Shown: positions 261 to 16,072, numbered from the stretch's first letter. The stretch is DNA of 31,962 nucleotides from Moorena sp. SIO3A5 (GCF_010672205.1 NZ_JAAHHD010000019.1:1-31962); one strand, 5' to 3'. A program made the numbers and translations. Notes: generated by a model from the letters alone, not told the origin.

Positions 261-325
261 TAGGGTGGGCAAAGTTATCTTATCTAGAAGACTCATGTGA
301 ACCAAAATGTTTTTGCCCACCCTAC
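261..325. repeat. Hairpin repeat, family D (TAGGGTGGGCAAA ... TTTGCCCACCCTA)
   Basis: A 13-bp inverted repeat flanks a loop of about 38 nt. The same stem sequence recurs at 13219..13284 and 13944..14012. Confidence 0.7.
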
Positions 326-374
326 AAGCTACAAGCTTGTTTTTCAAATCAGTTTAGTGCGATCGCAAAATTCC

Positions 375-690
375 CCATCAGCCATCAGCCATCAGCGATC
401 AGCGATCAGCGATCAGCGATCAGCCATCAGCCATCAGCCATCAGCGATCAGCGATCAGCGATCAGCGATCAGCCATCAGCCATCAGCCATCAGCGATCAG
501 CGATCAGCGATCAGCCATCAGCCATTACCTATTACCTATTACCTATTACCTATTACCCATTACCCATTACCCATTACCCATTACCCATTACCTATCACCT
601 ATTACCCATCACCCATTACCCATTCCCCATTCCCCATTCCCCATTCCCGATTCCCGATTCCCGATTCCCCATTCCCCATTCCCCATCACC
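375..690. repeat. Heptanucleotide tandem arrays (CAGCCAT/CAGCGAT, then TACCTAT/TACCCAT, then CCCCATT/CCCGATT)
   Basis: Direct reading shows consecutive 7-mer arrays of the STRR-like type that run right up to the ATG at 693. Confidence 0.9.
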
Positions 691-692
691 TA

Positions 693-1115
693 ATGGAAAA
701 AGATTTATTATTCACTCGCCGCCACACTGGACAATTTATTTCTGAGCGACAATTAGTAGACCTTAAAAGTGTCAATCGTGACTTGGCAACAGCGACAGGT
801 TTAGATAATTTGGCTCAGGCAATTCTCAATCGCCTTTACACCCGTAAAGGGGAGCTTGCCGCTTTGGGACATCCTAATTATGGGTCACGGCTCCACCTGT
901 TAGTGGGTCAACAAAATAATAATCGTCTTCGCTCCCTTGCTAATTTGTATATCCGTGAGTGTCTAGCTCAAGAACCTCGGATAGAAGAAATCAAGGCCAT
1001 AGATTTTGAGCCTCCCTCTCGTCAGCAACGTTATACACTCGTAGCAACTGTAGTCCTTAAAGCTGTAGGCCAGGAAACACCCTTGACCCTGAGCTTTTCC
1101 CTACCTGGAGGGTAA
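693..1115 (+). CDS. GPW/gp25-family baseplate wedge protein (P2 W / Afp9-like), 140 aa
   Basis: The sequence LAQAILNRLYTRKGELAALGHPNYGSRLHLLVGQQNN...LAQEPRIEEIKAIDFEP matches the gp25-like pattern (tR.GER...P.FGs.L..l.......l...i..aL..wEPRi). The start is taken at the first ATG after the heptamer array, because the longer ORF from 297 is repeat-encoded. Confidence 0.75.
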   Translation: MEKDLLFTRRHTGQFISERQLVDLKSVNRDLATATGLDNLAQAILNRLYTRKGELAALGHPNYGSRLHLLVGQQNNNRLRSLANLYIRECLAQEPRIEEIKAIDFEPPSRQQRYTLVATVVLKAVGQETPLTLSFSLPGG

Positions 1116-1360: not shown

Positions 1361-3883
1361 ATGGTTTTTGAGAAAAAAGGCTTTGCTCAACTGTTCGAGG
1401 CCATGCAGAGTCGCACTCCTGACACCCTAACGGATTTTCAAGAAGGCAGTGTGGTGCGCACTCTATACGAGTCCTTTGCTTGGGAACTCGCCCTCCTCTA
1501 CGAGCAGATGCAACGGGTATATCTGTCTGGCTTTGTGGATACTGCCGAAGGCATTGACCTTGACAAAGTAGTTGCTATTTTAGGCATTAAGCGGGGAGAA
1601 CCGGATTATGCTACCGGAAAAGTTACCTTTACGCGAGATATCGGCATTGATGAAGATATTTTTATTCCCAAAGGTACACTAGTTACCACGGAAGATACCC
1701 AGGAGTCTCCCAAAAAAGCCTACGAAACCATTGAAGAAGGCAAGATTTCCAAAGACCAAACCACTGCCCAGGTGAGAGTCCAGGCTCTACGACGGGGTAA
1801 AACAGAGGAAACTGAAGCTGAAACTATTGTGGTGATGCCTCAGCCGGTAGTAGGTGTCAAGTCAGTTAATAATCAAGAAACCCTCCGATTTACCGGTAAA
1901 CTACAGGAGAGTGACGAACAACTGCGCCAAAGAGCCAAGCAAACCCTGCTGGCGACGAGTGGTGGTAATACTACCTCCATCCGGAATGCTCTGTTGAGTT
2001 TACCTGGGGTGCGGGAAGTGCAAGTTAGAGAAAACTTTCATGTTGCTAGGGGCAAGGTTAAGGTTACTAAGAGTGGCTCCCTTAGTGAAGAGCTTAAGGT
2101 TCCCAAAGGGACAACGATAAAACTCGAAATCTTAGGCACACAAACTAAAGACTATCACACCACTCAAGAGGTAATCCTCTCAGCAGGTGAAAATCAAGAG
2201 GTGGAAGTAGAGGTAGAGGCTGGGATTTCTGGAGCAGCTGGGGAAGCTGAGGCTGGTGCAACTTGGAAAGAGTTAGTGCTTAATAGCGTAACTCTTACGG
2301 TTAGCAATGAGCAGCCTATTTCACGGCAAGACTTTGGAATCATTGAAATATTTGTTGATGGCATTGATTTTAGAGATCTTGAGAAAGTTAGTCAGCTCAA
2401 ACAGGAAATTGACCGAGTTAAGGCAGCGGGAATCTACCCATTACTTAAACCGGCGACAGCAGTGAACGTTGATGGGGTATTCCAAATTGAACTCCAACCA
2501 GAACTGAAACTGTCTCCAGAGGAACGGCTACAGTTGGAAGAACAGGTACAGCAGACAATTATTTCCTACCTCAAAGAGCAGAAAATGGGTCAACCCTTGC
2601 TCATCTCTCAACTCACGAGTAAGATACTAGGCTGTAACGGTGTCAATGATTTAGTTGATTTTACCCTCACCACCAGTATCCGTAATTCAGCAGGTACTGA
2701 ACTGGCTCGCCAGCACTATCAATCCTCCGAAACGCCAGTGAAACGGCTAGAGGTGGATATCTTAGAAAAGTTCACCCCCCACTCGGTTCGCGTTGCCTCA
2801 GAAATCAAACCCCTTCCTGTAGCCTTACAAATTAAGGCTGAAGCACTAGATGATTCCAAACAACAGGCAATTGAACAAGCCCTACAACACTATTTTGCTG
2901 ACTTCAAACCATCCCAGGCAGTGGTTAGGAGTGAGATTAAAAAGAGTATTGAGACAATCACCACCATCGAAGCAATCAAGTTAATTCCCTCCTTCTGGCA
3001 ACCAGGGATTCCCTTTGATGGCGAAACCGTTAATGTCACGTTTGTGGAGCAGGCTCAGCTCAGTTCGGTATTTCTCTATGAGAGATTACTCACCATTACC
3101 GGAGCCTTGAAGCTGATTTTACCGGTTACAGTTACCCAACAAGAGAAGCAGCAAATTTACCAACAGGTTCGGGAGCAGGTTAGTGCTTATCTTGAGCAAC
3201 TCCAACCAGAAGAAAATATTAAACTTGAGCAGCTAGTTGAACAGGCAAAAACCGTAGAATCAGTGCTAGATATTAATTGGAAACTGGAGGATTTTAAGGT
3301 TCTGGATGAAGACAATAATGCTAAGGATATAATTGACCAAGAACAGTCGCAAATTCAGGTAAACAAATTTGAAAAAACTCAGTTAGATAGTCAGTTTGTC
3401 ATTGATAGTGATATCCAGGTTGTTGATGTTGCGATCGCTACTTTGAATTTAAGGCTAACTCCGGCGGTTGCAGTTCCCGAAACTGTTGATCATGCAAAAC
3501 TCAAGAGTGCTATGGAAGCAGCAGTTAAGAGTATTTTGACTCCCTCTCTCCAGCAGTTACCCAAACTAGCAGTGGGAGACAATCTGGATTATGACCAATT
3601 GAAAACTCTCCTGCTGGTACAGATCAGGACTAAGGCAGGAAATTTTGACCAGGAAACCCTTCAGAGTTTCATCAGCAATGGCCAAGCTTCACAGCAAAAT
3701 CAGAAGCATTTAATGGAGGCGCTCCGGAGCTTTCTCCGAGATTCTAACTACAGGATTGATGGGCTAGAACTCACAGCCAAGGGTAGCTCCTATCAGCAAG
3801 ATATTCCGATTGCGATTGTAGAACGGGCTGAGATTCAGTTACAAGAGTCGTCTAGTTTGTCAATTGTGATTGAAGATAAGTAA
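1361..3883 (+). CDS. Baseplate J-like protein (P2 gpJ / T4 gp6 / Afp11-like), 840 aa
   Basis: The N-terminus (FAQLFEAMQSRTPDTLTDFQEGSVVRTLYESFAWELALLYEQMQRVYLSGFVDTAEG...GKVTFTR) fits the Baseplate_J family pattern. It lies directly downstream of the gp25-like gene, as in P2 W-J. Confidence 0.8.
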   Translation: MVFEKKGFAQLFEAMQSRTPDTLTDFQEGSVVRTLYESFAWELALLYEQMQRVYLSGFVDTAEGIDLDKVVAILGIKRGEPDYATGKVTFTRDIGIDEDIFIPKGTLVTTEDTQESPKKAYETIEEGKISKDQTTAQVRVQALRRGKTEETEAETIVVMPQPVVGVKSVNNQETLRFTGKLQESDEQLRQRAKQTLLATSGGNTTSIRNALLSLPGVREVQVRENFHVARGKVKVTKSGSLSEELKVPKGTTIKLEILGTQTKDYHTTQEVILSAGENQEVEVEVEAGISGAAGEAEAGATWKELVLNSVTLTVSNEQPISRQDFGIIEIFVDGIDFRDLEKVSQLKQEIDRVKAAGIYPLLKPATAVNVDGVFQIELQPELKLSPEERLQLEEQVQQTIISYLKEQKMGQPLLISQLTSKILGCNGVNDLVDFTLTTSIRNSAGTELARQHYQSSETPVKRLEVDILEKFTPHSVRVASEIKPLPVALQIKAEALDDSKQQAIEQALQHYFADFKPSQAVVRSEIKKSIETITTIEAIKLIPSFWQPGIPFDGETVNVTFVEQAQLSSVFLYERLLTITGALKLILPVTVTQQEKQQIYQQVREQVSAYLEQLQPEENIKLEQLVEQAKTVESVLDINWKLEDFKVLDEDNNAKDIIDQEQSQIQVNKFEKTQLDSQFVIDSDIQVVDVAIATLNLRLTPAVAVPETVDHAKLKSAMEAAVKSILTPSLQQLPKLAVGDNLDYDQLKTLLLVQIRTKAGNFDQETLQSFISNGQASQQNQKHLMEALRSFLRDSNYRIDGLELTAKGSSYQQDIPIAIVERAEIQLQESSSLSIVIEDK

Positions 3884-4348
3884 TGGGTAATGGGTAATGG
3901 GTAATGGGTAATAGGTAATAGGTAATAGGTAATGGGTGATGGGTAATAGGTAATGGGTGATGGGTGATAGGTAATGGGTGATGGGTGATAGGTAATGGGT
4001 AATAGGGAATAGGTAATAGGTGATAAGTAATGGGTAATAGGGAATAGGTAATAGGTGATAAGTAATGGGTAATAGGGAATAGGTAATAGGTGATAAGTAA
4101 TGGGTAATAGGGAATAGGTAATAGGTGATAAGTAATGGGTAATGGGTAATAGGTAATAGGGATGCGCTGCATCAAGACAGGGAATCGGGAGCATGTCACT
4201 TATGCAGAACATTTGTACTAAATCTAATGGGTAATAGGTAATTGGTAATAGGTAATTGGTAATAGGTAATTGGTAATAGGTAATTGGTAATGGATAATGG
4301 GTAATTAGTAATTGGTAATTGGTAATTGGTAATTGGTAATTGGTAATA
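3884..4348. repeat. Heptamer arrays (GGTAATG/GGTAATA/GGTGATG, then GGTAATT) with embedded GGGATGCGCTGCATCAAGAC...GGGAGCATGTCAC motif at 4160..4200
   Basis: Direct reading. The minus-strand ORFs 3835..4212 and 3852..4199 are array artefacts. Confidence 0.85.
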
Positions 4349-4615
4349 GGGGGAGCATGTCACATTAGCCTAATATTTTTACCTGATCTATAGCCCCCTC
4401 ATGGGTAAAAGCCAAGGGTAGTGGTACACAATTCGTGATTTTAACTCCTGAAACCTTGACGTAACCCGTTGCCAAATCACTACATCTTTACCACTACCAA
4501 GCCAAGCTCATATGGTACTAAGTTTATCTGTTCTGCAACTAAGACCGGCTTATTGACAGAATTTTTGTTGTTTTGTCAAGTAGTTCAAAAGTTCGGCTTC
4601 TTTGACCTGCTCCCT
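4349..4615 (+). mobile_element. MITE-like element, family A (GGGGGAGCATGTCAC ... GACCTGCTCC), long copy
   Basis: The termini form an imperfect inverted repeat (GGAGCATGTC versus the reverse complement GGAGCAGGTC). The same termini and shared interior are found at 21580..21742 on the opposite strand. ORF 4469..4819 is an artefact. Confidence 0.6.
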
Positions 4616-4815
4616 ACCCATCACCCATTACCCATTACCCATTACCTATTCCCTATTACCCATCACCCATCACCCATCACCCATCACCCATCACCCATCA
4701 CCCATTACCTATTACCTATTACCCATCACCCATTACCCATTACCTATTACCTATTACCTATTACCTATTACCCATTACCTATTACCTATTACCCATTACC
4801 TATTACCTATTACCT
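4616..4815. repeat. Heptamer array CCATCAC/CCATTAC/CTATTAC
   Basis: Tandem 7-mers reach up to the ATG at 4816. Confidence 0.9.
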
Positions 4816-5184
4816 ATGACTAATTATCAGCTAACTATTCAACAAAGAACTGAAGATTTTGCGATTCGTGTAATCAAAGCTTACTCTGAACTCAACAAGA
4901 GACATTTTGATGATGCTGGAAAAGTATTAGCCAAACAGTTTCTTAGAAGTGGTACAAGTATTGGAGCCAATTGTGCCGAAGCTATTTATGCTCAATCAAA
5001 AAAGGATTTTATCTCCAAATATTCTATTGCTTTGAAAGAAGCTTCAGAAACACAATATTGGATTAGAATCATGGTTAAATCTCAGCTTGTTACTGAACAA
5101 AACTTTTCGCTGATGCAACAAGAAATTGTTACAATAATCAAAATCCTAACTTCCATAATCAACAAACTAAAATCAAAGGAATAG
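4816..5184 (+). CDS. Four-helix-bundle protein (23S rRNA intervening-sequence protein / Avd superfamily), 122 aa
   Basis: The motif FLRSGTSIGANCAEA and the overall pattern (RTEDFAIRVIKAY..L.......Q..RS..SI.AN.AEA......K.DFI.....A..EA.ET..W) are typical of TIGR02436-type proteins. The gene is flanked on both sides by heptamer arrays. Confidence 0.75.
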   Translation: MTNYQLTIQQRTEDFAIRVIKAYSELNKRHFDDAGKVLAKQFLRSGTSIGANCAEAIYAQSKKDFISKYSIALKEASETQYWIRIMVKSQLVTEQNFSLMQQEIVTIIKILTSIINKLKSKE

Positions 5185-5387
5185 GTAATGGGTGATGGGT
5201 AATAGGTAATAGGTAATGGGTAATGGGTAATGGGTGATGGGTGATGGGTGATGGGTAATAGGTGATAAGTAATGGGTAATAGGTAATGGGTGATGGGTGA
5301 TAGGTAATGGGTAATAGGTAATGGGTAATAGGTGATGGGTAATGGGTAATAGGTGATAAGTAATGGGTAATAGGGAATAGGTAATAG
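5183..5387. repeat. Heptamer array GGTAATG/GGTGATG/GGTAATA ending in GGGATGCGCTGCATC motif
   Basis: Direct reading. The minus-strand ORF 5173..5400 is an artefact. Confidence 0.85.
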
Positions 5388-5631
5388 GGATGCGCTGCAT
5401 CTTCAGGTGCGACCCGTGGCGAATTTAATAATTAGATGCGGAAAGCGCACCTAACAGGGAATCAGCTTCAAAGAATACTGTACCTCATAACTGTGATCAA
5501 CGCTATATTTACCATTAGAGCAAGCAATTACCCATGAGGGGCTATAGATCAGGTAAAACTATTCGGCAAAAGTGACATGCTCCCTCTATTACCTATAACC
5601 TATTAAATATAACCTATTAAATATAACCTAT

Positions 5632-5806
5632 CAGGGTAAGCGCAAGAATCAATAAACCGTGGCTTATTGAGAAAAAGACCGCGTCATTATCAACAACTTA
5701 ACTCTATTGCGAGTACAGTTCTACGAGATTATAGGGGTTTCGAGCCACGATCAACCGATATCCAGCCAATGCACATTATGGGCAATTTTTTCTTGCGCTT
5801 ACCCTG
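5632..5806. mobile_element. MITE with perfect 17-bp terminal inverted repeats (CAGGGTAAGCGCAAGAA ... TTCTTGCGCTTACCCTG), 175 bp
   Basis: The perfect TIRs were read directly. The element sits inside a CTATTAAATATAAC 14-mer array, and both flanks read TAT/TA, consistent with a short target-site duplication. Confidence 0.7.
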
Positions 5807-6052
5807 TATAACCTATTAAATATAACCTATTACCCATTACTTATCACCTATAACCTATTACCCATTACCTATAACCTATTACCCATCACCCATCACCCAT
5901 CACCCATCACCCATCACCCATCACCCATCACCCATCACCCATCACCTAATACCTATTACCTATTACCTATTACCCATCACCTATTACCTATTACCCATTA
6001 CCTATTACCCATTACCTATTACCCATTACCTAATACCTATTACCTATTACCA
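5807..6052. repeat. 14-mer and heptamer arrays (CTATTAAATATAAC; CCATCAC; CCTATTA)
   Basis: Direct reading. The arrays end 4 nt before the ATG at 6057. Confidence 0.85.
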
Positions 6053-6056
6053 AATC

Positions 6057-7991
6057 ATGGAAAAACGCGGCAAAACCACCAGCATCACCAGTCGATTTCC
6101 TCATTTCTATGACGGAGCCAATGTTGAGAGTTTGCTCTACCAATTTATTGATGTCTTTGGCTTCTTGCTGGAGTCAGGGGAAACCGACTTGCTCGCTGTG
6201 ATGCGTTCCCATCATGTGGATACCGCTGACAATGAAGGGTCTCAAGGCTTTATTGCTGCCCAAAAGGGAGATTTAGATCAACTTTTTGCTCTCTACTTAG
6301 AAGCGTTAGGGGGCACCTCTCAACTGGTAAAGGTAAGTCACCAGTTTAGTCCAGGGAGTATTAAAAATGTCAGTAACTTGGCCAAGAAACTTCATCAAGG
6401 CAGGGATGAACTGTCTCAGTATTTGCGTGATGCACTTGATCCGCATACCAAGACCCTTCTGGAGCGCTATCAGGTTGCCCAGGCTCAATTTAACCTAGAG
6501 TCTTTCAGGGATCTGCCCGGTCTAGCCATTCAGCTATTGGTTGCTACCGATCAACTCAGTCATTATCTCAAAATTCACTTGCCCCCAGAAACCCTGGAAC
6601 TGCTCAATCACTATGACGGTTTCCCCCCGCTGCCTGAACCCCTACAGCAGGGACTGGTGCAAACACTCAACCAACAGCTGGTTAATCCCTCCCTCTACCG
6701 GAAAAATAAGCCATACTTCCAAACCCTGACTCTCAGCAAAGCCGCTCAGCAATTGCTGGCACAACAGCCCATCGGGGAAGACCGACAACGTCTCAATCGC
6801 TTGTTGTTAGAAGCCGCCTATCCAGACTATATCAGCCCTAGCCATATTCCCACTCTGGCTGAGGTAGAGCAGGGGTTAATTAAGGGCTTGAATCACTCTC
6901 TACAAGACCCCTTACTCTACCAAAAAACTGATCAACCCCAATCCCAAACCCTTCCGGCAGGAACTGATCTGATTATCCAAAATCGGCAATTGCTGGAAGC
7001 AGCCTATCCCAATGAGATTGCCAAGAGTTATGCTCCTTACCGAGAGCGACTAAAAGGCTTGATTCAAATCCTCCGTCAAGGAGCTGCTACCAAGCCAGGG
7101 ATTATTGATTTGGTTGCTGCCAACTTGGGAATTTTAGGAGATTCTCCCGCCGCTCAAGCCGCCAAGAAAACCATTCAAATTCAAGAGTTCATGCCTCGGC
7201 TGACTCAGTTACATCCTCCTAATCAGCCAGAACATCGCTACTTGCTGACACTTCAGGAAGAATTTGAGGTCTATAACCCCAACCCGCAGCCAGAGGAAAT
7301 CGAAATTTTCCTGGCAGTTCAGCCAACTCTGCCTGTGGTATTATACAATCTGCGAATTGTTAACTGCGATACTGAAGCATCGGTTGTTTACAAGGGAAAA
7401 GTAGAGGCCAATGATGTATTGTCCTTTCGAGAGGATATCGTTGATGTTAACGGTAAACCTTATGCAACAGAAGGAACGCCCCTACTACCAACCCACACCT
7501 CTCGCTGGCGGCTGGAAGCAGAGTTAGCTGAGGGGTATCCCCTGGCACGATTTGACCAACAGCGCTTTGATCAAACCACCTTTGTCTTGAGTGAAACCGT
7601 CGCCTCTCTGGAAATGAGATTCTACAAACTCACCCCAGGGGTGTTTGATGTAAAAATTCCTTGGGATATTCCCGGCTTTACTGATAAGTTTCAGGAAGCA
7701 GGGGATCATCCTCGTCATCAAATTGCTGGAATTATTGACAAGGTTAAAGCCGCTGGTGTTTTGGGGATTATTACCTATCAGAAGCGCTTTCAGGAAACTC
7801 ACGAGATAGTAGCAGAGTTAACTGTTGAACGTTCTCCGTTTAGGGAAGAACATCTTGCCGAAGATCACCTTACTATTAGTAGTAAGCAGGTTCCCTATCC
7901 AGAGGGAGTAGTCCACGAAATGTCGGATAATCTGCTTACTTGTGGAGTATTTGACTATACTGGCTTTGATAGCGGGAATCGTTTTGCTTGA
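6057..7991 (+). CDS. Putative baseplate protein in the P2 gpI / Afp12 position, 644 aa
   Basis: The ORF is long and uninterrupted. The call rests mainly on synteny: it follows the W-like and J-like genes and precedes the H-like fibre. I cannot confirm sequence-level homology from memory. Confidence 0.45.
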   Translation: MEKRGKTTSITSRFPHFYDGANVESLLYQFIDVFGFLLESGETDLLAVMRSHHVDTADNEGSQGFIAAQKGDLDQLFALYLEALGGTSQLVKVSHQFSPGSIKNVSNLAKKLHQGRDELSQYLRDALDPHTKTLLERYQVAQAQFNLESFRDLPGLAIQLLVATDQLSHYLKIHLPPETLELLNHYDGFPPLPEPLQQGLVQTLNQQLVNPSLYRKNKPYFQTLTLSKAAQQLLAQQPIGEDRQRLNRLLLEAAYPDYISPSHIPTLAEVEQGLIKGLNHSLQDPLLYQKTDQPQSQTLPAGTDLIIQNRQLLEAAYPNEIAKSYAPYRERLKGLIQILRQGAATKPGIIDLVAANLGILGDSPAAQAAKKTIQIQEFMPRLTQLHPPNQPEHRYLLTLQEEFEVYNPNPQPEEIEIFLAVQPTLPVVLYNLRIVNCDTEASVVYKGKVEANDVLSFREDIVDVNGKPYATEGTPLLPTHTSRWRLEAELAEGYPLARFDQQRFDQTTFVLSETVASLEMRFYKLTPGVFDVKIPWDIPGFTDKFQEAGDHPRHQIAGIIDKVKAAGVLGIITYQKRFQETHEIVAELTVERSPFREEHLAEDHLTISSKQVPYPEGVVHEMSDNLLTCGVFDYTGFDSGNRFA

Positions 7992-8702: not shown

Positions 8703-9197
8703 ATGAAAATTGCCGAAAGCCTCGACATGAAAGGTAGGTTAACTATCCAAAAATATAATTCTCAAGCTCAGCTGGTGGATGAAGTTAAAGCTGACAACTC
8801 GATTGTTTATACAGGGCGGGAATTAGTGGCTAAGTTATTTACTAATCAAAAAATTGATCCGATCCGCTACATCGCAGTAGGTACTGGCAACACCGCTGTT
8901 AAGCCAGCTAATGATACCCAACTGGGACAGGAGGTGTTTCGTAAACAAATTAAAAATTTTGACCCCTCCAAAGATTTAATAGAGACTGGAGAAGATGACG
9001 GTAAAAAATGTCAAATTCGGTTATCTGTAGACCTAGATTTTGGAGAACCAAAAAGTCAGCCAGTTGCTTTAACTGAGGCAGGTTTGTTCAATAGCCTAGA
9101 AAAAGGAAAGGGAATCATGTATAATAGAGTAACCTTTCCTCCAATTACCAAGAGCGAAAATTTTAAGTTAACTCTCGTCTGGGAAATTTTGTTTTAG
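8703..9197 (+). CDS. Tail-fibre N-terminal (baseplate-attachment) domain protein, P2 gpH N-terminus-like, 164 aa
   Basis: The stretch IVYTGRELVAKLF...IRYIAVGTGNTAVKPANDTQLGQEVFRKQI...VALTEAGLF parallels the P2 gpH N-terminus (ITTAGAAKLAAA...VGITTMAVGDGGGKLPVPDAGQTGLIHEVWRHAL...RELGLYD). Its position after the I-like gene supports the call. Confidence 0.55.
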   Translation: MKIAESLDMKGRLTIQKYNSQAQLVDEVKADNSIVYTGRELVAKLFTNQKIDPIRYIAVGTGNTAVKPANDTQLGQEVFRKQIKNFDPSKDLIETGEDDGKKCQIRLSVDLDFGEPKSQPVALTEAGLFNSLEKGKGIMYNRVTFPPITKSENFKLTLVWEILF

Positions 9198-9210: not shown

Positions 9211-9747
9211 ATGGTTCAAGAGTTCACTGCAACCAAAAAAAAGCAAGGGGATTTGATTTGTTCAGCTGACTGGAATGCAGCCATGGACGAAGTCACCCGT
9301 TTAGGGAAATCAAAACTAGACAAAGAAAGTTTCAGAGGACCACTGACAATTCAGGAATCCTTAACTGTGAATGGAACCCTGAAATTAGAAAAGGGGGTGG
9401 CAGTGGCTCAATTCTCCAGTACCCTAAATGGCACAAGCAATTCCGTGCCGACTGAGAGTGCCGTAAAAACCTACGTCGATAGTAAACTCAACAGCCTAAA
9501 AGGAAGCGACAGCCTGAAGTTGACTGCAAAGAGCCTGACAGTTAGTGACGCTCTGACAGTAAACGGAGATTTAACGGTCTCCAGTAAAGGAAAACTTTCT
9601 TTTGAAAAAGGTACAACAGTAGATGGATTTGTTACCAGTATCAACCCAAACGGAAAATCTAACTCTACTGTAGTACCAACTGAACAAGCAGTGATAGCTT
9701 ATGTCGAAAGTAAACTAAAGGAGCTAGGTTTCCTAGATTCACAGTAA
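9211..9747 (+). CDS. Tail-fibre shaft module with phage tail-fibre repeats, 178 aa
   Basis: It contains repeated S/T-rich ...VPTExAVxxYVxSKL motifs (NSVPTESAVKTYVDSKL; TVVPTEQAVIAYVESKL). The N-terminus (DWNAAMDEVTRLGKSKL) is paralogous to the N-terminus of ORF 10060. Confidence 0.55.
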   Translation: MVQEFTATKKKQGDLICSADWNAAMDEVTRLGKSKLDKESFRGPLTIQESLTVNGTLKLEKGVAVAQFSSTLNGTSNSVPTESAVKTYVDSKLNSLKGSDSLKLTAKSLTVSDALTVNGDLTVSSKGKLSFEKGTTVDGFVTSINPNGKSNSTVVPTEQAVIAYVESKLKELGFLDSQ

Positions 9748-10052
9748 TAGGTAATGGGTGATGGGTAATGGGTAATAGGTAATGGGTAATGGGTAATGGG
9801 TAATGGGTAATGGGTGATGGGTGATGGGTAATAGGTAATAGGGGGAGCATGTCACTTATGCCTAATATTTGTACATTATCTATAGCCCCCGGGTAAAAGC
9901 CAAGCTCATATTCCCGATTCTCAATTCTCAATTCTCAATTCTCAATTCCCAATTCCCAATTCCCAATTCTCAATTCCCAATTCCCAATTCTCAATTCTCA
10001 ATTCTCAATTCTCAATTCCCGATTCCCGATTCCCGATTCCCGATTCCCGATT
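9748..10052. repeat. Heptamer arrays (GGTAATG; CAATTCT/CAATTCC/CGATTCC) with a truncated family-A MITE end at 9841..9911
   Basis: Direct reading. ORFs 9665..9931 and 9869..10054 are artefacts. Confidence 0.85.
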
Positions 10053-10059
10053 AAAATCC

Positions 10060-11346
10060 ATGACCACAGGATTTAACCCAACACCCAAACAACCAGGCGA
10101 TCCATTCTACGCCAAAGATTGGAATGAGGCGATCGCAGAAATTGCTCGTTTAGAAAAAACCAAACTAAATCAAGAAGCCGATGGTAGCATCAAAGGTCCA
10201 CTAACGATTGAAGAAGCCCTAAAAACTAGTGAAACTACTCCCCCGACACTCCAAATTAACGGCCCATTGAAATTACAATCGGACGTGACAGTCAGGGAGT
10301 TTTCCAGTGATGGAACTCTTGCAGATAACAGCAATACTGCTGTACCAACTGAAAAGGCGGTAACAACCTATGTCACCAGTGCCGTGGACAAGTTCCAGAA
10401 AAGCCGAGACAACTATGCTCAGGTGACAAGCCAAGGTGGCACGGTGAAAAATTTACACCTCAAGGGGAATCTCCAACTGCCACAGGGGTGTAAAGTACAA
10501 CAGTTTGCTGATACTATAGACACCAGCAGAAAGTCTACCCTAGTGGTGCCAACTGCACAGGCGGTGATTAAGTATGTCAATACTACTCTAGAAAAATATA
10601 GTTTTAGTTTAGAGAAAATTAAATTAGCTGATGGTGTATTTTTGGAATTGGTACAGCTCAAGGCTGGTAAATTCATGATGGGTTCGCCCGGAGATGAGTC
10701 TGGTAGAGATAGTGACGAAGGCCCCCAGCATCAGGTAACTGTACCAGGGTTCTGGATGGGGAAGTATCAAGTAACCCAGCAGCAGTGGCAAGCCGTTGCT
10801 GGTTATGAACAAGTCAAAACAGGGATTAGCACTAACCCCTCTAACTTTAAAGGCCAGTCTCGACCAGTTGAGAGGGTAACCTGGCATGAAGCCAAAGAAT
10901 TTTGTGCGCGACTCAATCAAAAATTTAAGGGTCAACTCCAGGGTCGAAAATTCCGTTTGCCCAGTGAGGCGGAATGGGAATATGCCTGTCGAGCAGGTAC
11001 GACAACTAGATATTACTTTGGTGACAATAGCTCACAACTGGGAGACTATGCTTGGTACGATGGTAATTCTGGTAGCAAAACTCATCCAGTAGGACAAAAA
11101 AAACCGAATAAATGGAAATTGTATGATATGATGGGTAATGTATGGGAATGGTGTGAAGATACCAGGCATGGCAACTATGATCATGCCCCAGTAGACGGCA
11201 GTGCCTGGTTTGATAATGATAATGATAATCGGCTGCTGCGCGGTGGCTCTTGGCACCACAATTCGAGGGGCTGCCGCTGTGCCGATCGCAACTACTCGCC
11301 GGACCCCAGGTACAGCTCCTACGGTTTCCGGGTAGTTTGTTCCTAG
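10060..11346 (+). CDS. Tail-fibre protein with C-terminal FGE-sulfatase (C-type lectin fold) domain, the DGR variable protein, 428 aa
   Basis: The N-terminal third carries tail-fibre repeats ([18 protein letters not shown]; [18 protein letters not shown]). The C-terminal part has hallmark FGE-sulfatase motifs ([10 protein letters not shown]...[15 protein letters not shown]...[16 protein letters not shown]...[13 protein letters not shown]...LRGGSW). The last roughly 40 codons are the VR. Confidence 0.85.
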
Positions 11347-11351
11347 GCGTG
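11229..11351 (+). other. DGR variable repeat (VR), 123 bp, spanning the stop codon
   Basis: It aligns with the TR at 12864..12989. There are 13 substitutions, every one at a TR adenine, plus a single 3-nt (AAC) length difference. Both repeats end in the shared block TTCCTAGGCGTG, which I take as a candidate IMH. Confidence 0.9.
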
Positions 11352-11413
11352 GACTCTTCTTTGCTCTTTCGCCCTTTTGCCCTCTACCCTTTTATTTATT
11401 TTATTTTACCCTT

Positions 11414-11437
11414 TTCCGCCTGCGGCGGAATTTTTTT
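11414..11437 (+). terminator. GC hairpin TTCCGCC-tgc-GGCGGAA followed by T7
   Basis: It is a perfect 7-bp stem followed by TTTTTTT, 63 nt downstream of the VR end. It fits both a rho-independent terminator and the stem-loop usually found 3' of DGR VRs. Confidence 0.6.
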
Positions 11438-11443
11438 CTGGAA

Positions 11444-11791
11444 ATGAGTGATTTACCAATTATCCAAAGAACCTACGAGCTGATTAAGTGGTATGTTCCC
11501 ATTCTAAACCGGTTGCCAAGAGACCATAAGTTCATCCTAGGAGATAGAATCATTTCAGGACTCTATGACCTACTCGACAATCTGATTGTAGCACGGTATG
11601 CCCAGGAAAAACTGACAATTTTAAAAAATCTTAACAGTAGACTAGACATCCTGCGCCACCAAACCCGACTCCTGCTGGACTTCAAGCTGATTAAAACTGA
11701 GCGCTACGAGTACGCCAGTAAATTGCTCAACGAAATTGGCAAAGAGTTGGGAGGCTGGATTAAACAACAACAAAGACAAGCAAAAAAATGA
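11444..11791 (+). CDS. avd: DGR accessory variability determinant (Avd), 115 aa
   Basis: The sequence [30 protein letters not shown]...[12 protein letters not shown] matches the bAvd pattern. The stop overlaps the RT start codon (ATGA). Confidence 0.85.
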
Positions 11792-12846
11792 AACGCTACG
11801 GCAATCTTTGGCACCAAGTGACGGAATTTAGCAACTTACTAGCGGCTGCCCGTCAAGCCCAGAAAGGTAAACGGTTTCGTCCTGATGTGCTCGAATTCAA
11901 TTATAACCTAGAACAACAACTGAGTCAATTACAAGCGGAACTAATCTCCCAAACCTACCACCCTGGTGCCTATAAAACCTTTGAAATCAAGGAACCCAAA
12001 CCTCGCTTTATCTCAGCTGCTCCCTACCGCGACCGAGTCGTTCACCATGCTCTGTGCAACATCATTGTTCCCATTTTCGAGCGCAGTTTCATCGGTGACT
12101 CCTACGCTAACCGGGTCGGTTTTGGTACCCACCGTGCCCTCCGCCGTTTTACCAAATTTGCCCGCTCTAGTAACTATATTCTTCAGTGCGACATTCGCAA
12201 ATACTTTCCCAGTATAGACCATACCATCCTCAAATCCTTGCTCCGTCGCCAGCTCAAATGTCGGGAAACCCTCTGGTTACTTGACACCATTATTGACAAT
12301 AGCAACAAACAAGAACTCATCATTGACTATTTCCCCGGTGACGATTTACTTTCCCCCCTCAACAGGCGACGAGGCTTACCCATTGGCAACCTCACCAGTC
12401 AGTTGTTTGCTAACGTCTATCTCAACGGCTTCGACCACTTTCTCAAAGAACAAGTCAAAGCAACTAAATATATCCGCTATGTGGATGATTTTGCCCTATT
12501 TGCTGATAATCGCACCTTTTTAGCATCAGCCAAACTAGCGATAGAAGACTATCTTGCCAACCTCAGGCTCAAACTTCATCCCATCAAAACTCAGCTATTT
12601 GCCACCAAACAGGGAGCGAATTTTCTCGGCTTCCACATTTTGCCAGATTGCCTCCGCGTCCGTACTGAAAATCTGCGCAGGGCAAGACGCAGGCTGCGAC
12701 GTATGTTGGTAGAATACAAACAAGGTAAAATCACGCGCCAGGAAGTATCCCAATCATTGCAAAGCTGGTTTGCCCATCTAGAACATGGTGATACTTGGCA
12801 GTTGCGCCAACAGATATTTAGTTCTCTCCCTTGGGTGAGAAGCTAG
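11788..12846 (+). CDS. DGR reverse transcriptase, 352 aa
   Basis: RT motifs are present: [17 protein letters not shown]; the DGR-typical [16 protein letters not shown] (I/LGxxxSQ); and [12 protein letters not shown] (YxDD). The gene lies between the avd gene and the TR. Confidence 0.93.
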
Positions 12847-12863
12847 AGAAGGGACAGGCACTT

Positions 12864-12989
12864 TCGGCTGCTGCGCGGTGGCTCTTGGAACAACAATTCG
12901 AGGAACTGCCGCTGTGCCAATCGCAACAACAACTCGCCGGACAACAGGAACAACAACAACGGTTTCCGGGTAGTTTGTTCCTAGGCGTG
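12864..12989 (+). other. DGR template repeat (TR), 126 bp, AAC-rich
   Basis: It lies 18 nt downstream of the RT stop and is identical to the VR except at adenines, apart from one extra AAC. ORF 12831..13034 is an artefact of the TR. Confidence 0.9.
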
Positions 12990-13218
12990 CGCTCTTGGTG
13001 TGCCAGAACTTGTGGATGGAAATTCACAGGGTGAGCCATCTCCAAGAGTCCAGACCTGTTCCTGGGAGATCGGTGACGGTCTTGCGAAAATCAAACTAGG
13101 TCTGGTAGCTTGGTAGGCTCTCAATCCGAAGAGTTGCCCGACCTTCTACTAGTTGACAATAGGTAATGGGTAATGGGTAATGGGTAATAGGGAATGGGGA
13201 ATGGGGAATGGGTAATAG

Positions 13219-13284: not shown

Positions 13285-13343
13285 ACCCTAGCCTAGGGAA
13301 TGCGATCGCCTTGGTATACTTAAGGACAAATCAGGAAAAAACA

Positions 13344-13616
13344 GTGAACTCTATCCCGTTAAAACAATTTAAGACTAACATCCAAGACTTGATCAAAAAA
13401 GTCATTACTCAGCATATTGCCCTCAAAATTACCGATCCCAATCAGGGAGACTTTATTATTATTAGTGCCGAAGATTGGGAACAACAACAAGAAACCTTGT
13501 ATGTTTTACAAAATACCAATTTAATGGAACAGATTAACTGTTCTCAAGCTACCCATTCCCAAAATAAAGGCTACTCTCCCAATCAGCAAGAACTAGATGA
13601 GATCCTTAGTATTTGA
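13344..13616 (+). CDS. Phd/YefM-family type II antitoxin, about 90 aa
   Basis: The block DFIIISAEDWEQQQETLYVLQN matches the YefM core (V.I.s.edyesl.ETlyll). The start is taken at a GTG that follows AGGAAAAAACA, and the TTG at 13311 in the ORF track is less likely. No toxin ORF lies downstream. Confidence 0.65.
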   Translation: MNSIPLKQFKTNIQDLIKKVITQHIALKITDPNQGDFIIISAEDWEQQQETLYVLQNTNLMEQINCSQATHSQNKGYSPNQQELDEILSI

Positions 13617-14133: not shown

Positions 14134-14961
14134 TCAGGGATCCGTTGACTGCTGAACCACCTGTGTAACTTGTTCAACCTCTAATTCTAAAGCTTGGGCA
14201 ACTTGTTCTACGGTTAACCCCAACGCTAACAACCGAGGTATAGACTTTAATTTGCCTTGAATTTCACCTTCTTGTATGCCTTCTTGTATGCCTTCAAGTC
14301 TGCCTTCTGCTTTTGCCTCCTGATAAACTTTGGTTTGCCGTAAATCACTTAAGCTAAACATGGCTTCGATCTCCCTACGACTGAGTAGTGGTAACTTATA
14401 CACCAGTATGGTCTCTATTAATTGTAGAAGTTCTCGCTTTTGTCGTTCATTGTCTACCTCCTCAGTGGTTCGTTGAATCAAGTCTTGAGCAAGTGCGATG
14501 GCAGTATCTTCCTCGGTTACAATTAGCTGTACTGTAGCGATACCCACCGATGGTGCAGGGGTCTCGGCTAATTCATCGAGATAAATCCGAGATACCCTTG
14601 GAGAATCGAGTAATTCAAGATATTGTTGAGTTGCTCCTTTATCCACATTGCGGCTCGGGTAAATCACCACACCACGCCAATCATTGCTGATTTTGTTTTT
14701 GTTTAAGTATATGAAAATTTCGGTAAAAAAGCGGGAGTAAAATTCAGAGTCCCTCTGAAATTGGACTTCTACAAAATAAATCGGTGATTGGGCTGTGGTA
14801 GTTGTCGGCAGGAATACTCCATCAATTCTAAAAGCTAGTTGTTTAACTTCCACAGAGGCGAATTGATAAGCTTGTGCTTCTGTAGGGGAATGGTTAATTA
14901 ATTCAAAGAAGATGCTGGGAAACGATTGGAACAGGCGATAGAATATGGTGTCGGTTTTCAC
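14134..14961 (-). CDS. Rpn-family recombination-promoting nuclease / putative transposase (PD-(D/E)XK N-domain plus DUF4351-like C-terminus), 275 aa
   Basis: The N-terminus MKTDTIFYRLFQSFPSIFFELI...FVEVQFQRD is typical of this cyanobacterial family. The C-terminus has G(I/L)QEG repeats. Confidence 0.65.
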   Translation of the reverse strand: MKTDTIFYRLFQSFPSIFFELINHSPTEAQAYQFASVEVKQLAFRIDGVFLPTTTTAQSPIYFVEVQFQRDSEFYSRFFTEIFIYLNKNKISNDWRGVVIYPSRNVDKGATQQYLELLDSPRVSRIYLDELAETPAPSVGIATVQLIVTEEDTAIALAQDLIQRTTEEVDNERQKRELLQLIETILVYKLPLLSRREIEAMFSLSDLRQTKVYQEAKAEGRLEGIQEGIQEGEIQGKLKSIPRLLALGLTVEQVAQALELEVEQVTQVVQQSTDP

Positions 14962-15048
14962 ATTAATGTCATTATTTAACTATACCTATAGTAATGGTAA
15001 TGGGTAACCCGCCATTACCTATTACCCATTACCTATTACCTAAATATA

Positions 15049-15560
15049 TCAACTATCAGAAGACTGCTGGATCACCTTTGTAACTTGTTCAACCTCTAAT
15101 TCTAAAGCTTGGGCAACTTGTTCTACGGTTAACCCCAAAGCTAACAACCGAGGTATAGACTCTAATTTGCCTTGAATTTTACCTTCAAGTCTACCTGCTT
15201 GTATACCTTCAAGTCTCCCTTCTTGTATACCTTCAAGTTTACCTGCTTGTATGCCTTCGGCTAAAGCCTCCTGATAAACTTTGGTTTGCCGTAAATCACT
15301 TAAGCTAAACATGGCTTCGATCTCCCTACGACTGAGTAGTGGTAACTTATACACCAGTATGGTCTCTATTAATTGTAGAAGTTCTCGCTTTTGTCGTTCA
15401 TTGTCTACCTCCTCAGTGGTTCGTTGAATCAAGTCTTGAGCAAGTGAGATTGCAGAATCTTCCTCGGTTACAATTAGCTGTACTGTAGCTATACCTACTG
15501 ATGGTGCAGGGGTCTCGGCTAATTCATCGAGATAAATCCGAGATACCCTTGGAGATAGGT
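15049..15560 (-). pseudogene. Truncated tandem paralogue of the Rpn-family nuclease (C-terminal ~170 aa only)
   Basis: The stretch SPRVSRIYLDELAETPAPSVGIATVQLIVTEED...LRQTKVYQEA is about 90% identical to residues 118-275 of ORF 14134..14961. The N-terminal nuclease domain is replaced by the heptamer array at 15548..15730. Confidence 0.65.
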
Positions 15561-15730
15561 AATAGGTAATAGGTAATAGGTAATAGGTAATAGGTAATGG
15601 GGAATAGGTAATAGGTAATAGGTAATAGGTAATAGGTAATAGGTAATAGGTAATGGGTAATAGGTAATAGGTAATGGGGAATAGGTAATAGGTAATGGGT
15701 AATAGGTAATGGGGAATGGGGAATACAAGA
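15548..15730. repeat. Heptamer array GGTAATA/GGTAATG/GGGAATA inside the former Rpn paralogue
   Basis: Direct reading. ORF 15519..15728 is an artefact. Confidence 0.9.
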
Positions 15731-16072
15731 TTTCTTTCCGAAGCTCTGAAGCTGCCCTGCTTTTTTGAGATCAACGGACAGCTAACCCGGATTTGGGTAC
15801 ACAAGCGATCGCGTAGCGTGACCGTAGGTCAATCGCACAAGCGCGGAAACTTCGCGTGACTCGCTTAGCGTGACCAAAGGTCAATCGCTTCGATAAACCT
15901 TTGAGTAGCCTATTGCCTCTCAATACTACTCAATAGTAGAATCGGCAAGGGCTTAAGCTGGGGCTTGCTGCAAGGTCAAAAAATTTTACAATGCCTATAT
16001 TACAAGCATCCCAGCCTCTTTAATAAAATTCCCTAGCAGCACTGCCAACCTGCCGAATGTGGGAAATAAACG

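Follow-up and report, generated by a model that had tools for sequence, protein, structure and literature searches.

A complete diversity-generating retroelement in Moorena whose target is most likely the fibre of an apparently head-less contractile-tail gene cluster

The Moorena sp. SIO3A5 locus analysed here is a genuine and complete diversity-generating retroelement (DGR), arranged in the order target, avd, RT and TR. We consider it very probable that this DGR belongs to a cyanobacteria-specific RT lineage; the protein it diversifies is most likely the receptor-binding fibre of a chromosomally fixed, apparently head-less tail cluster. All positions refer to the window, which is the whole analysed stretch of 31,962 nucleotides (GCF_010672205.1, NZ_JAAHHD010000019.1:1-31962). 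The DGR itself is not new: it is EGJ33169–33171 of the marine cyanobacterium M. producens 3L, for which the exact target protein is on record at NCBI. It has already been catalogued, and EGJ33169 and EGJ33171 are found in Additional file 1 of that survey, with the target entered only as 'CLec' (Vallota-Eastman et al. 2020, PMC7517822). The target-avd-RT-TR order corresponds to Architecture B2 of Wu et al., and both the avd-RT-TR arrangement and indels of multiples of three at AAC runs are already known for DGRs. Previously unremarked are the location of the target, which takes the place of the fibre gene in a phage-tail cluster apparently without head genes, and the existence of sister Moorena loci that are without the avd–RT–TR cassette. 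The order and coordinates given in the initial annotation hold, and the parts of the DGR are:

10060..11346, + strand: DGR target, 428 aa (EGJ33171.1 / WP_008182821.1), with the VR in its C-terminal FGE-sulfatase/C-type-lectin domain
11229..11351, + strand: VR, 123 nt, the last 39 codons and stop of the target, with 13 A-to-N changes and one 3-nt gap relative to the TR
11444..11791, + strand: avd, 115 aa, its stop overlapping the RT start (ATGA)
11788..12846, + strand: DGR RT, 352 aa (EGJ33169.1), with LPIGNLTSQ and YVDD
12864..12989, + strand: TR, 126 nt, non-coding, 17 nt past the RT stop, with 31 adenines and 11 AAC codons

Differences between the TR and the VR are confined to adenines. When the two repeats were aligned with gaps and mismatches were tabulated by TR base, 13 substitutions were found (A>C 5, A>G 4, A>T 4), every one at a TR adenine, and there were none at the 94 aligned non-A positions within the repeat. 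The hypergeometric probability that 13 random sites would all fall on the 29 aligned adenines among 123 positions is 5.5e-10. The example strings that had been quoted for the two repeats are exact, and their identity over the first 25 nt also stands; the identical 3' end is present, although it extends over 31 nt (VR 11321..11351) rather than the 29 first reported. A by-eye comparison had read the substitutions correctly but had overlooked a 3-nt indel: one AAC of the TR run AACAACAAC (12924..12932) is missing in frame from the VR, which reads AAC TAC, so that a 123-nt VR faces a 126-nt TR. The TR is AAC-rich as claimed, its 11 AAC codons lying in the VR reading frame, and its adenines are distributed as 15 at codon position 1, 15 at position 2 and one at position 3. 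This AAC layout is retained in the TRs of two related loci, a Symploca relative (L004) and L005. The VR occupies the 3' end of the target ORF, in a C-type-lectin-type domain, as expected for a DGR. There is a single VR for the TR within the window. A possible second VR allele in strain 3L was rejected, as the record is a C-terminal fragment only and its VR is identical.

A second, independent VR, from Moorena sp. SIO2C4 (L007), exhibits the same A-only pattern. It agrees with the window TR at 95/95 non-A sites and departs from it at 18 of the 31 A sites, all 18 differences being at adenines, and the protein that carries it is only 60% identical to the window target. Could the two repeats be an ordinary duplication that has diverged at random and has no connection to the RT? 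Beyond the existence of a repeat nothing speaks for this, and it is scarcely credible given that all 13 differences fall on one base of one copy, that L007 gives 18/18 likewise, that the adenines are restricted to the first two codon positions, and that a cognate RT and Avd lie between the repeats. The A-only counts in the window and in L007 refute it. The initial annotation spoke of direct evidence of adenine-specific mutagenesis; the A-only pattern is real, but 'direct' is too strong, because it is the footprint of past events that is seen rather than ongoing variation.

The proteins encoded by the cassette lead to the same reading. The LPIGNLTSQ motif noted earlier is present in the RT translation, alongside the catalytic YVDD. 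The best solved relative of the RT is the Bordetella phage DGR RT (8ub7, 5.9e-52, 180 bits), compared with 77 bits (2.1e-20) for the best group II intron RT and 52 bits for the next RT classes (a group II maturase; a chain deposited as 'retron-type RT'), and the protein falls under the cutoffs of every NCBIfam retron, Drt and group II model. At the positions where group II enzymes have QGxxxSP, the sequence reads [I/L]GxxxSQ with YxDD intact, which would place the enzyme in the DGR clade; I181 and Q187 of IPIGSLTSQ in the 8ub7 chain correspond to bRT residues named by Handa et al. The RT also matches phrog_1423 (3.2e-123) and is 70-82% identical to RTs found throughout filamentous cyanobacteria. 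Avd scores 144.8 bits against the NCBIfam NF033474 DivGenRetAVD equivalog (cutoff 80), matches PF22296 bAvd (4.8e-21) and phrog_3206 'Avd protein of DGR' (2.9e-26), and is named 'diversity-generating retroelement protein Avd' in RefSeq. Its gene ends at 11791 and that of the RT begins at 11788, as the reported ATGA overlap requires. Since the RT is of the DGR clade, Avd belongs to the equivalog family, the VR lies in a C-terminal C-type-lectin/FGE domain, the TR/VR differences are A-only and the cis elements are conserved, every defining DGR feature open to in silico testing supports the identification as a DGR. Neither outcome that the initial annotation had named as refuting was encountered: the repeat is free of non-A mismatches, and the RT scores far better against the Bordetella DGR RT than against group II RTs. 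The window contains no Rfam match and no tRNA.

The cis elements, which are conserved in the lineage, and the repeat array that follows the DGR are:

11321..11358, + strand: IMH-like VR 3' boundary, 31 invariant nt followed by GCGTG-GA-CTCTT
11414..11430, + strand: hairpin TTCCGCC-TGC-GGCGGAA with a T-run, 62 nt past the VR, a terminator-like match
12851..12858, + strand: GGGACAGG, 5' of the TR, putative 5' partner of CCTGTTCC (13056..13063) in a duplex of the 'cPRT Stop' type
12990..13145, + strand: structured, Spacer-like RNA of ~155 nt after the TR, non-coding and conserved across lineages
13158..13218, no strand assigned: heptamer tandem-repeat array immediately past the DGR, right-hand endpoint of cassette deletions in related Moorena loci

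The TR counterpart of the VR boundary is GCGTG-CG-CTCTT at 12984..12996, and the two-base discriminator, GA in the VR and CG in the TR, recurs in the window, L004, L005 and the L007 VR; by analogy it probably has an IMH/IMH* role. A CCGCC/GGCGG stem with a variable 3-nt loop is retained 56-64 nt past the VR in L007, L004 and L005, and is missing from the cassette-less loci L002, L003 and L009. The window has a GC-rich hairpin or cruciform, comparatively far from the VR (~60 nt) and with a loop of 3 nt, and it could equally be a DGR target-recognition cruciform, a terminator of the target gene, or both. In the RNA that follows the TR, helix 1 pairs 12989..12999 with 13042..13051, a 9-bp stem capped by a GGAA (GNRA) tetraloop is located at 13009..13030, and a hairpin (13063..13086) and a long helix (13098..13144) follow; the MFE z-score is -3.3. 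Across six sequences, the consensus structure has double changes in 14/44 pairs and 96.6% paired cells, against 36-46% when slid, and the observed value was reached by 0/500 shuffles on four of five measures and by 21/500 on further pair types. These figures are supportive rather than conclusive of a DGR-type structured RNA flanking the TR. Handa et al. described an Avd-binding GNRA stem-loop in cyanobacterial DGRs, with which the 9-bp Moorena stem-loop agrees, and the 'cPRT Stop' duplex is likewise their concept. Pairing of GGGACAGG with CCTGTTCC is retained in four loci despite differing sequences, and in L004 a G-C pair is replaced by A-U through a double change; since whole-length predictions of a duplex between the RNA upstream and downstream of the TR are messy, only its 8-bp core is given, and with four sequences its assignment as a 'cPRT Stop'-type duplex is suggestive only.

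The sequence features, the A-only mutation pattern in two independent VRs, the conservation and covariation of the RNA, and synteny are observed; a course of diversification, including its priming and its operation at the present day, is proposed. The transcript would include the last part of the RT gene, followed by the 126-nt TR and the ~155 nt of structured downstream RNA. This RNA would join the RT and Avd, with the 9-bp GNRA stem-loop as the Avd-binding element and a helix between the 3' edge of the TR and the downstream AAGAGTC block as a putative template:primer duplex, from which cis-primed cDNA synthesis would place random nucleotides opposite TR adenines. The cDNA would then supplant the target's 3'-terminal VR, with an IMH-type boundary as its 3' limit, and the hairpin ~60 nt downstream probably assists replacement. 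Up to 15 Asn codons could be recoded (11 AAC, 2 AAT, plus A-containing codons), and the recoded residues would be presented on the ligand-binding face of the C-type-lectin/FGE-type domain. RT slippage on the AAC run would best explain the AAC that is missing from the VR.

What might the diversified protein do? The target closes a series of genes with the same orientation, of which the following lie in the window upstream of it:

297..1115, + strand: gp25-like sheath initiator / baseplate wedge (PF10934 3e-9; phrog_975 1.6e-20)
1361..3883, + strand: Baseplate_J (gp6/gpJ-like) baseplate wedge, 840 aa (PF04865 1.7e-23; phrog_6 2e-61)
6057..7991, + strand: 644-aa protein of no known family, between Baseplate_J and the fibre-like genes
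8703..9197, + strand: pre-target protein, 164 aa (phrog_5417 9e-23; phrog_4176 'tail fiber protein' 1.7e-6)
9211..9747, + strand: paralogue of the target N-module, 178 aa, without the C-lectin domain

PF03781 covers residues 196-426 of the target (E 2.4e-54), and the nearest solved relative is Treponema TvpA (2y3c, 5.7e-35). The N-terminal ~190 aa are fibre-like: residues 76-109 match phrog_9851 'tail fiber protein' (6.8e-9), and the first 182 aa are 39% identical (E 4e-30) to the product of the upstream ORF 9211..9747, after which heptamer arrays occupy 9744..10052. This 178-aa paralogue is missing from L003 and L007, in both of which the 164-aa protein has orthologues immediately 5' of the target (dN/dS 0.29-0.37). 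The 644-aa protein has no match in Pfam, PHROG or PDB, and is syntenic in L002 and L003 (dN/dS 0.39). Sequence searches against solved structures returned no match for the fibre-like N-terminus or the 164-aa protein, and an AlphaFold2 model of the target from a 10-sequence alignment was unusable (mean pLDDT 45).

Together, the window and L001 place a tape measure, gpD-like hub, gpV spike, gp25-like protein and Baseplate_J upstream of the target, the Baseplate_J protein being 100% identical to that of M. producens 3L. The Moorena cluster as a whole is of the myovirus type and consists of sheath, tube candidate, tape measure, hub, spike, gp25-like protein, Baseplate_J and fibre, in which the sheath is known from syntenic Moorena loci only and the tube candidate is a 168-aa ORF without a family match. 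The tail structural genes have dN/dS values of 0.16-0.39. In the Symploca relative the target directly follows Tail_P2_I. Gene position and weak PHROG matches suggest that the target is mounted on a tail particle, and the cluster appears head-less in Moorena genomes other than 3L: in L010, L011 and L015 the sheath gene adjoins rlmN with no head genes, and on the right, in the window, chromosomal genes follow the DGR.

Two other readings of the target and its neighbours have to be weighed. The target could be a free-standing C-lectin ligand-binding protein, and no tail fibre, that happens to lie beside a prophage-derived remnant. The published survey (PMC7517822), which has no prophage-linked cyanobacterial DGRs and lists mostly cytosolic or regulatory targets, would fit this, as would the caspase-FGE protein that the same RT lineage diversifies in L005, the fibre-FGE homologues that lie off tail genes in L008 or in rearranged contexts in L007 and L009, and a fibre N-module with neither a solved relative nor a usable model. 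We nevertheless regard it as unlikely, because the target closes a co-oriented tail cluster directly after the baseplate genes, the Symploca arrangement after Tail_P2_I is the fibre position of P2- and Mu-type phages, the target, its 178-aa paralogue and the 164-aa neighbour all have PHROG tail-fibre matches, synteny is maintained across Moorena, and Mu-like prophages offer documented cases of DGRs that act on FGE-sulfatase/gpH fibres (PMC12724379). The cluster could instead be part of a complete, inducible prophage, with a BPP-1-type phage DGR for host-range switching. Its genes do follow a phage-like order (tape measure, hub, spike, gp25, Baseplate_J, fibre) and not that of a canonical eCIS, and its left boundary is known from Moorena assemblies other than 3L. 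We judge this quite improbable: in those three assemblies the sheath directly adjoins rlmN and glycosyltransferase genes, chromosomal genes lie past the DGR, none of the loci examined yielded a capsid, portal, terminase, integrase or lysis gene, the cluster has a common chromosomal location across several species and is under purifying selection, and no sequenced phage was found with an RT more than 40% identical to that of Moorena. Membership of the canonical eCIS was rejected as well, on account of the wrong gene order and the lack of an ATPase.

The fibre reading allows a bolder proposal, which we put forward tentatively and hold to be possible rather than probable: that Moorena (and Symploca) have domesticated a contractile tail particle that lacks a head, that the resident DGR keeps re-targeting its receptor-binding fibre tip, and that species acquire and lose the cassette but retain the fibre gene. 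Sister Moorena loci form a series from intact cassette through avd remnant to clean deletion, and because sister loci have lost it, the cassette can be considered dispensable. The cassette might, on the other hand, be an intact fossil in which diversification has ended, the TR/VR differences and the 3-nt gap being frozen traces of past homing. Every M. producens 3L record carries the same VR, as seen in three records of the protein, a search of metagenome and viral contigs with the TR adenines masked to N yielded no further VRs or copies, the TR/VR length mismatch means that the VR as it stands was not simply copied from the TR, and the cassette is deleted in four related loci. We think a fossil unlikely all the same. 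The RT, Avd and target ORFs are all intact, the catalytic YVDD and the I/Q dNTP-contact residues are present, every RNA and DNA cis element is preserved, and active DGRs are known to produce in-frame indels at AAC runs. The absence of non-A mismatches in the window VR (0/94) and the L007 VR (0/95) points to recent homing, as neutral drift would also have altered sites other than A.

Taken as a DGR, the locus is a textbook and already catalogued example, to which confirmation adds little. Its interest is in the setting: no cyanobacterial DGR in the survey was tied to a prophage and the targets were mostly intracellular regulators, and Moorena and Symploca tie the same RT lineage to the tail-fibre position. 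If the proposal of a re-targeted fibre were true, the locus would encode a self-diversifying tailocin or injection device, and, if particles are made, they would be a natural case of programmable specificity in a tail-like particle. Such a case would have a bearing on tailocin and injection-system engineering, and on allelopathy in a cyanobacterium that forms blooms and is rich in toxins. The clean natural series of intact, remnant and deleted cassettes would lend itself to studying the loss of DGRs from loci that retain their targets.

The apparently head-less contractile-tail gene cluster, its fixed chromosomal site and its purifying selection are reminiscent of R-type tailocins and eCISs. 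Pfam and PHROGs identified no tailocin lysis cassette (holin/endolysin) or regulator in the window and related loci, where several small ORFs have no family; no gene from the sheath to the DGR was found to have an eCIS AAA+ ATPase domain, and a tail terminator was not recognised. In eCISs of the Afp/PVC type the tape measure is downstream of the fibre, whereas in Moorena it precedes the hub, an arrangement shared with phages. The Symploca DGR is followed by a CIS_spike_tip gene, of which no counterpart was found in the window. We found no DGR-diversified fibre of an R-type tailocin or eCIS in the searchable literature. Treponema denticola TvpA, the closest solved target domain, shares the FGE-type CLec fold and C-terminal VR, but it is a lipoprotein, belongs to a cellular DGR of HRDC accessory architecture and has no tail-gene context. 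The DGRs of Desulfovibrio piger Mu-like prophages (PMC12724379) combine Avd with an FGE-sulfatase/gpH tail-fibre target in a myovirus-type tail module; unlike the Moorena loci, in which no head, packaging or lysis genes were found, they belong to complete, spontaneously induced prophages.

Bordetella phage BPP-1 (Mtd at the tail-fibre tip, Avd, bRT, TR, Spacer) represents the same mechanism class and provides the closest solved relative of the RT. It shares with Moorena Avd, adenine-specific TR-to-VR differences, the IMH/IMH* logic, a hairpin after the VR, structured RNA past the TR that includes a stem-loop for Avd binding and, if the Moorena protein is indeed a fibre, a tail receptor-binding protein as target. 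The order there is avd-TR-RT rather than avd-RT-TR, Mtd is a minimal CLec fold whereas the Moorena target is of the FGE-sulfatase subtype, and BPP-1 is a complete infectious phage in contrast to the apparently head-less, chromosomally fixed Moorena cluster. The cyanobacterial DGR clade (Nostoc PCC 7120 Alr3497/Alr3495, Nodularia spumigena DGR1; PMC7517822) has the same RT lineage, at the 70-82% identity given above, the same avd-RT-TR order with the TR after the RT, an FGE-sulfatase/CLec VR, the same AAC layout and the same GNRA stem-loop RNA. In most catalogued targets of that clade the N-terminal domains are regulatory (kinase, caspase/CHAT, NACHT), and the survey placed none in a prophage, whereas the Moorena target has a fibre-like N-module and its gene closes a contractile-tail cluster.

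The window is Moorena producens 3L sequence: its Baseplate_J gene is 100% identical to that of scaffold NZ_GL890908, and its proteins are exactly EGJ33169-EGJ33175. A diversity-generating retroelement (DGR) lies there with its four parts in the order target gene, avd, reverse transcriptase (RT) gene and template repeat (TR), the target carrying the variable repeat (VR):

10060..11346, + strand: target ORF, 428 aa
11444..11791, co-oriented with the target: avd ORF, 115 aa
11788..12846, co-oriented with the target: RT ORF, 352 aa, its ATG overlapping the avd stop (ATGA)
12864..12989, co-oriented with the target: TR, non-coding, starting 17 nt past the RT stop

The VR is 123 nt long and the TR 126 nt, and because of this difference an ungapped comparison fails half-way. 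When gaps are allowed, the two repeats differ by one 3-nt gap in the VR, where AAC TAC stands opposite the TR run AACAACAAC (12924..12932), and by 13 substitutions (five A>C, four A>G and four A>T), 13/13 at TR adenines. Of the 123 aligned positions 29 are adenines, and the probability that 13 random differences would all fall on them is 5.5e-10. In the VR reading frame the TR has 11 AAC codons, with adenines at codon positions 1 and 2. The first 25 nt and the last 31 nt of the repeats are identical, and no further copies of the repeat were found elsewhere in the window. The initial annotation, which aligned the repeats by eye, had the four-part order, the adenine-only substitutions and the identical 5' stretch right, overlooked the 3-nt indel, and gave the identical 3' stretch as 29 nt. 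The adenine-specific TR/VR observation is confirmed; the DGR is real and was correctly interpreted, and as a finding it is ordinary.

The protein components agree with this assignment. The RT has an RVT_1 domain, LPIGNLTSQ and YVDD; the first of these motifs and the ATGA overlap had been reported before and are present in the translation and the ORFs. Among solved structures the RT is closest to 8ub7, a reverse transcriptase of 328 aa (E 5.9e-52; the best group II intron RT gives 2.1e-20), and I181 and Q187 in the IPIGSLTSQ of 8ub7 match the dNTP-contacting residues of the Bordetella phage RT (bRT) named by Handa et al. The 115-aa protein scores 144.8 bits on the NCBI DGR Avd equivalog model (cutoff 80). 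The C-terminal 230 residues of the target form an FGE-sulfatase-type C-lectin domain (PF03781, 2.4e-54); among solved proteins its nearest relative is TvpA, the variable protein of a Treponema DGR. The dS of the N-terminal module is ~1.8 (window 10060..10630 against L003:17036..17700 of M. bouillonii and L007:10001..10570 of Moorena sp. SIO2C4), compared with 0.1-0.36 for neighbouring genes and 0.24-0.29 for the target's own FGE domain, which indicates that the shaft module has been swapped by recombination while the C-lectin/VR end was kept at the locus. A sigma-70-like promoter match lies antisense in the 5' part of the RT gene (11928..11900, minus strand; TTGACT-17-TATAAT, 11/12); near-consensus and oriented towards avd, it could be a chance match.

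We compared the cis elements with those of two members of the RT lineage that have TR/VR pairs of their own, L004 (Symploca; RT 82% identical to that of the window) and L005 (metagenome; 78%). The form of the 3' boundary is constant in all three, GCGTG-CG-CTCTT in the TR and GCGTG-GA-CTC(TT) in the VR, and the two-base CG/GA difference would be a discriminator of the IMH*/IMH type. A hairpin with an invariant CCGCC/GGCGG stem, a variable 3-nt loop and a following T-run is found 56-64 nt past the VR in the window (11414..11430), L007, L004 and L005. The ~155 nt 3' of the TR are non-coding, yet their conservation equals that of coding sequence. The RNA folds better than shuffles (z = -3.3), and in the consensus structure of a six-sequence alignment 14 of 44 pairs have double compensatory changes, with 96.6% of cells paired against 36-46% when partners are slid. 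On four of five measures 0/500 shuffles reach the observed value; on the fifth, "further standard pair types", 21/500 do. The helix at 13009..13030, a 9-bp stem with a GGAA/GGGA cap, is probably the Avd-binding stem-loop described by Handa et al., who report 'GNRA tetraloops prevalent among Cyanobacteriota DGRs'. An 8-bp pairing of GGGACAGG just 5' of the TR with CCTGTTCC 3' of it persists in four loci, in L004 through a compensatory change, and is consistent with their cPRT Stop duplex. Because the sequences are few, these RNA-structure results are supportive and short of conclusive.

In two metagenome contigs (L012:7948..8860 and L013:2934..3823) the post-TR RNA element stands directly behind a diversified VR-like FGE-gene end, and neither RT nor Avd was found in the fetched loci. 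In the target-avd-RT-TR order the VR and TR form direct repeats on either side of avd-RT, and recombination of the two would yield just such a 'VR + Spacer' relic. The arrangement in these contigs may also be related to the DGR1 ncRNA element, of which 70 dispersed copies have been reported in Nodularia (PMC3610870).

Is the element active? The claim of direct evidence for mutagenesis went too far: the window shows the footprint of past change and no live variation. A second footprint, to judge from sequence an independent one, is provided by the target orthologue of L007, whose protein is only 60% identical overall. Its VR matches the window TR, gap-free, at 95/95 non-A sites and differs at 18/31 A sites. 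That neither VR has any non-A change speaks for recent homing from an identical TR. Two results weigh against ongoing activity: the M. producens 3L target has one and the same VR in every NCBI record, and scans of metagenome and viral collections with A-masked TR patterns gave no matches. The 3-nt gap in the window VR fits a phenomenon described by Wu et al., in which TR and VR lengths differ in ~7% of DGRs, mostly by multiples of 3 beside AAC, and which they ascribe to RT slippage. Length differences recur in the RT lineage: in the L005 VR (9432..9572) a +2 insertion beside AAC repeats (at the AAC run) shifts the frame, so that the target ORF runs into avd, and the L004 VR (9354..9500) has a 14-nt tandem duplication of IMH-proximal sequence at its 3' end.

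Relatives have lost the cassette. At the orthologous locus of L002 (Moorena sp. SIO3I8), L003 and L009 (Moorena) the target is kept with a VR-like end, and from 39 nt past the VR the sequence passes directly into a heptamer-repeat array and the sequence following window 13158..13218. L007:11167..11600 (JAAHGN010000005.1), compared with window 11229..13218, keeps the hairpin and the first 63 avd codons (97% identical); the remainder of avd is gone together with the RT, the TR and the post-TR RNA, and the junction is of the same kind. All four junctions are in heptamer-repeat arrays, and the deletions end at short tandem repeats that pervade the M. producens genome. The two different left endpoints indicate that the ancestral state was the intact cassette and that two or more deletions removed it.

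The target lies in a phage tail setting. On its 5' side are a Baseplate_J gene, a gp25-like sheath initiator, a 644-aa protein without family assignment, a 164-aa protein that PHROG matches link to tail fibres, and a 178-aa paralogue (39% identical, E 4e-30) of the N-terminal module of the target. Farther 5', L001 of the same genome encodes a spike of gpV type, a gpD-like hub and a tape measure of 1201 aa. In three other Moorena assemblies (L010, L011, L015) the syntenic cluster opens with a phage sheath gene directly adjoining rlmN and glycosyltransferase genes. No capsid, portal, terminase or integrase genes were found at the sheath end of those clusters, and chromosomal genes follow the DGR in the window. 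Between M. producens and M. bouillonii, dN/dS is 0.16 for both hub and spike, 0.33 for Baseplate_J, 0.39 for the 644-aa protein and 0.29 for the 164-aa protein, values which indicate that the cluster is maintained and not decaying. The Symploca locus, with the closest non-Moorena RT, has the order gpD, gpV, gp25, Baseplate_J, Tail_P2_I, FGE target, Avd, RT, TR; this shared arrangement places the target at the tail-fibre position of an apparently head-less contractile tail cluster. Target homologues also occur outside tail clusters, and the same RT lineage diversifies a caspase-FGE protein (L005) in an ordinary chromosomal setting. That the target is the fibre of a head-less tail, the only part with some novelty, is plausible but unproven. 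A search of its N-terminal module against solved structures found no relative, a predicted structure of the target proved unusable as a model, and neither a lysis cassette nor an ATPase of the eCIS kind was recognised.

Several observations concern the cluster and its neighbours. The 178-aa ORF (9211..10052 region), missing from L003 and L007, consists of nothing but the fibre-like N-terminal module, and its identity to the targets of L003, L007 and the window is 39-42%; it stops where the C-lectin domain would begin, and ~300 nt of heptamer repeats follow. It may represent an older fibre gene that was truncated, or else an additional, short fibre. A CIS_spike_tip (PF19267) gene 3' of the Symploca DGR (L004:11514..11942), with no counterpart found in the window, hints at an injection-system affinity of that cluster. 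Baseplate_J is a single 840-aa ORF in the window (1361..3883) and 687 aa plus 146 aa in M. bouillonii and SIO3I8 (L002/L003:9998..12526). L011 (11974..16533) has a split tape measure, past which the cluster is truncated; in L009 (9709..9972) the 164-aa gene is down to its last 87 codons beside a TPS-domain gene, and in L007 the 644-aa gene is down to its last 416; the cluster has probably decayed to various degrees in these Moorena MAGs, or the MAGs may be mis-assembled.

Between Baseplate_J and the 644-aa gene, ~2 kb (3876..6056) missing from L002 and L003 hold heptamer arrays (3876..4350, 4615..4814, 5180..5385, 5807..6051). Amid them is a four-helix-bundle protein of 122 aa (4816..5184) from TIGR02436 / 23S_rRNA_IVP, a family related to Avd, with a weak NF033474 match (1e-3); the ORF at 4469..4819, mostly overlapping a repeat array, is probably not a gene. 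Past the DGR are a Phd/YefM-type antitoxin ORF (13311..13616) with no recognisable toxin partner adjoining and two tandem DUF2887 paralogues (14134..15804, minus strand); the targets of L007 and L009 are likewise followed by a DUF2887 gene. An acetyl-CoA synthetase gene lies between two TnpB/IS605-OrfB-type genes (23706..24896 and 27787..29037, minus strand), which combine OrfB_IS605 with a Cas12f1-like TNB domain.

The avd-RT-TR order is Architecture B2 of Wu et al., and the RT is a member of the clade that Vallota-Eastman et al. (PMC7517822) describe as specific to cyanobacteria. Additional file 1 of that study has a row for EGJ33169.1 (GL890865, Moorea producens 3L, VP EGJ33171.1, 'CLec') and Avd is already so named in RefSeq, so the DGR was already known; its tail-cluster context went unrecognised in that study. 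We found no literature that connects a DGR with tailocins or contractile injection systems. Mu-like prophages with DGRs that target FGE-sulfatase/gpH fibres have been described (PMC12724379); those prophages are complete, whereas the window cluster is apparently head-less. In the light of this precedent, the context described here departs only modestly from the original BPP-1 theme.
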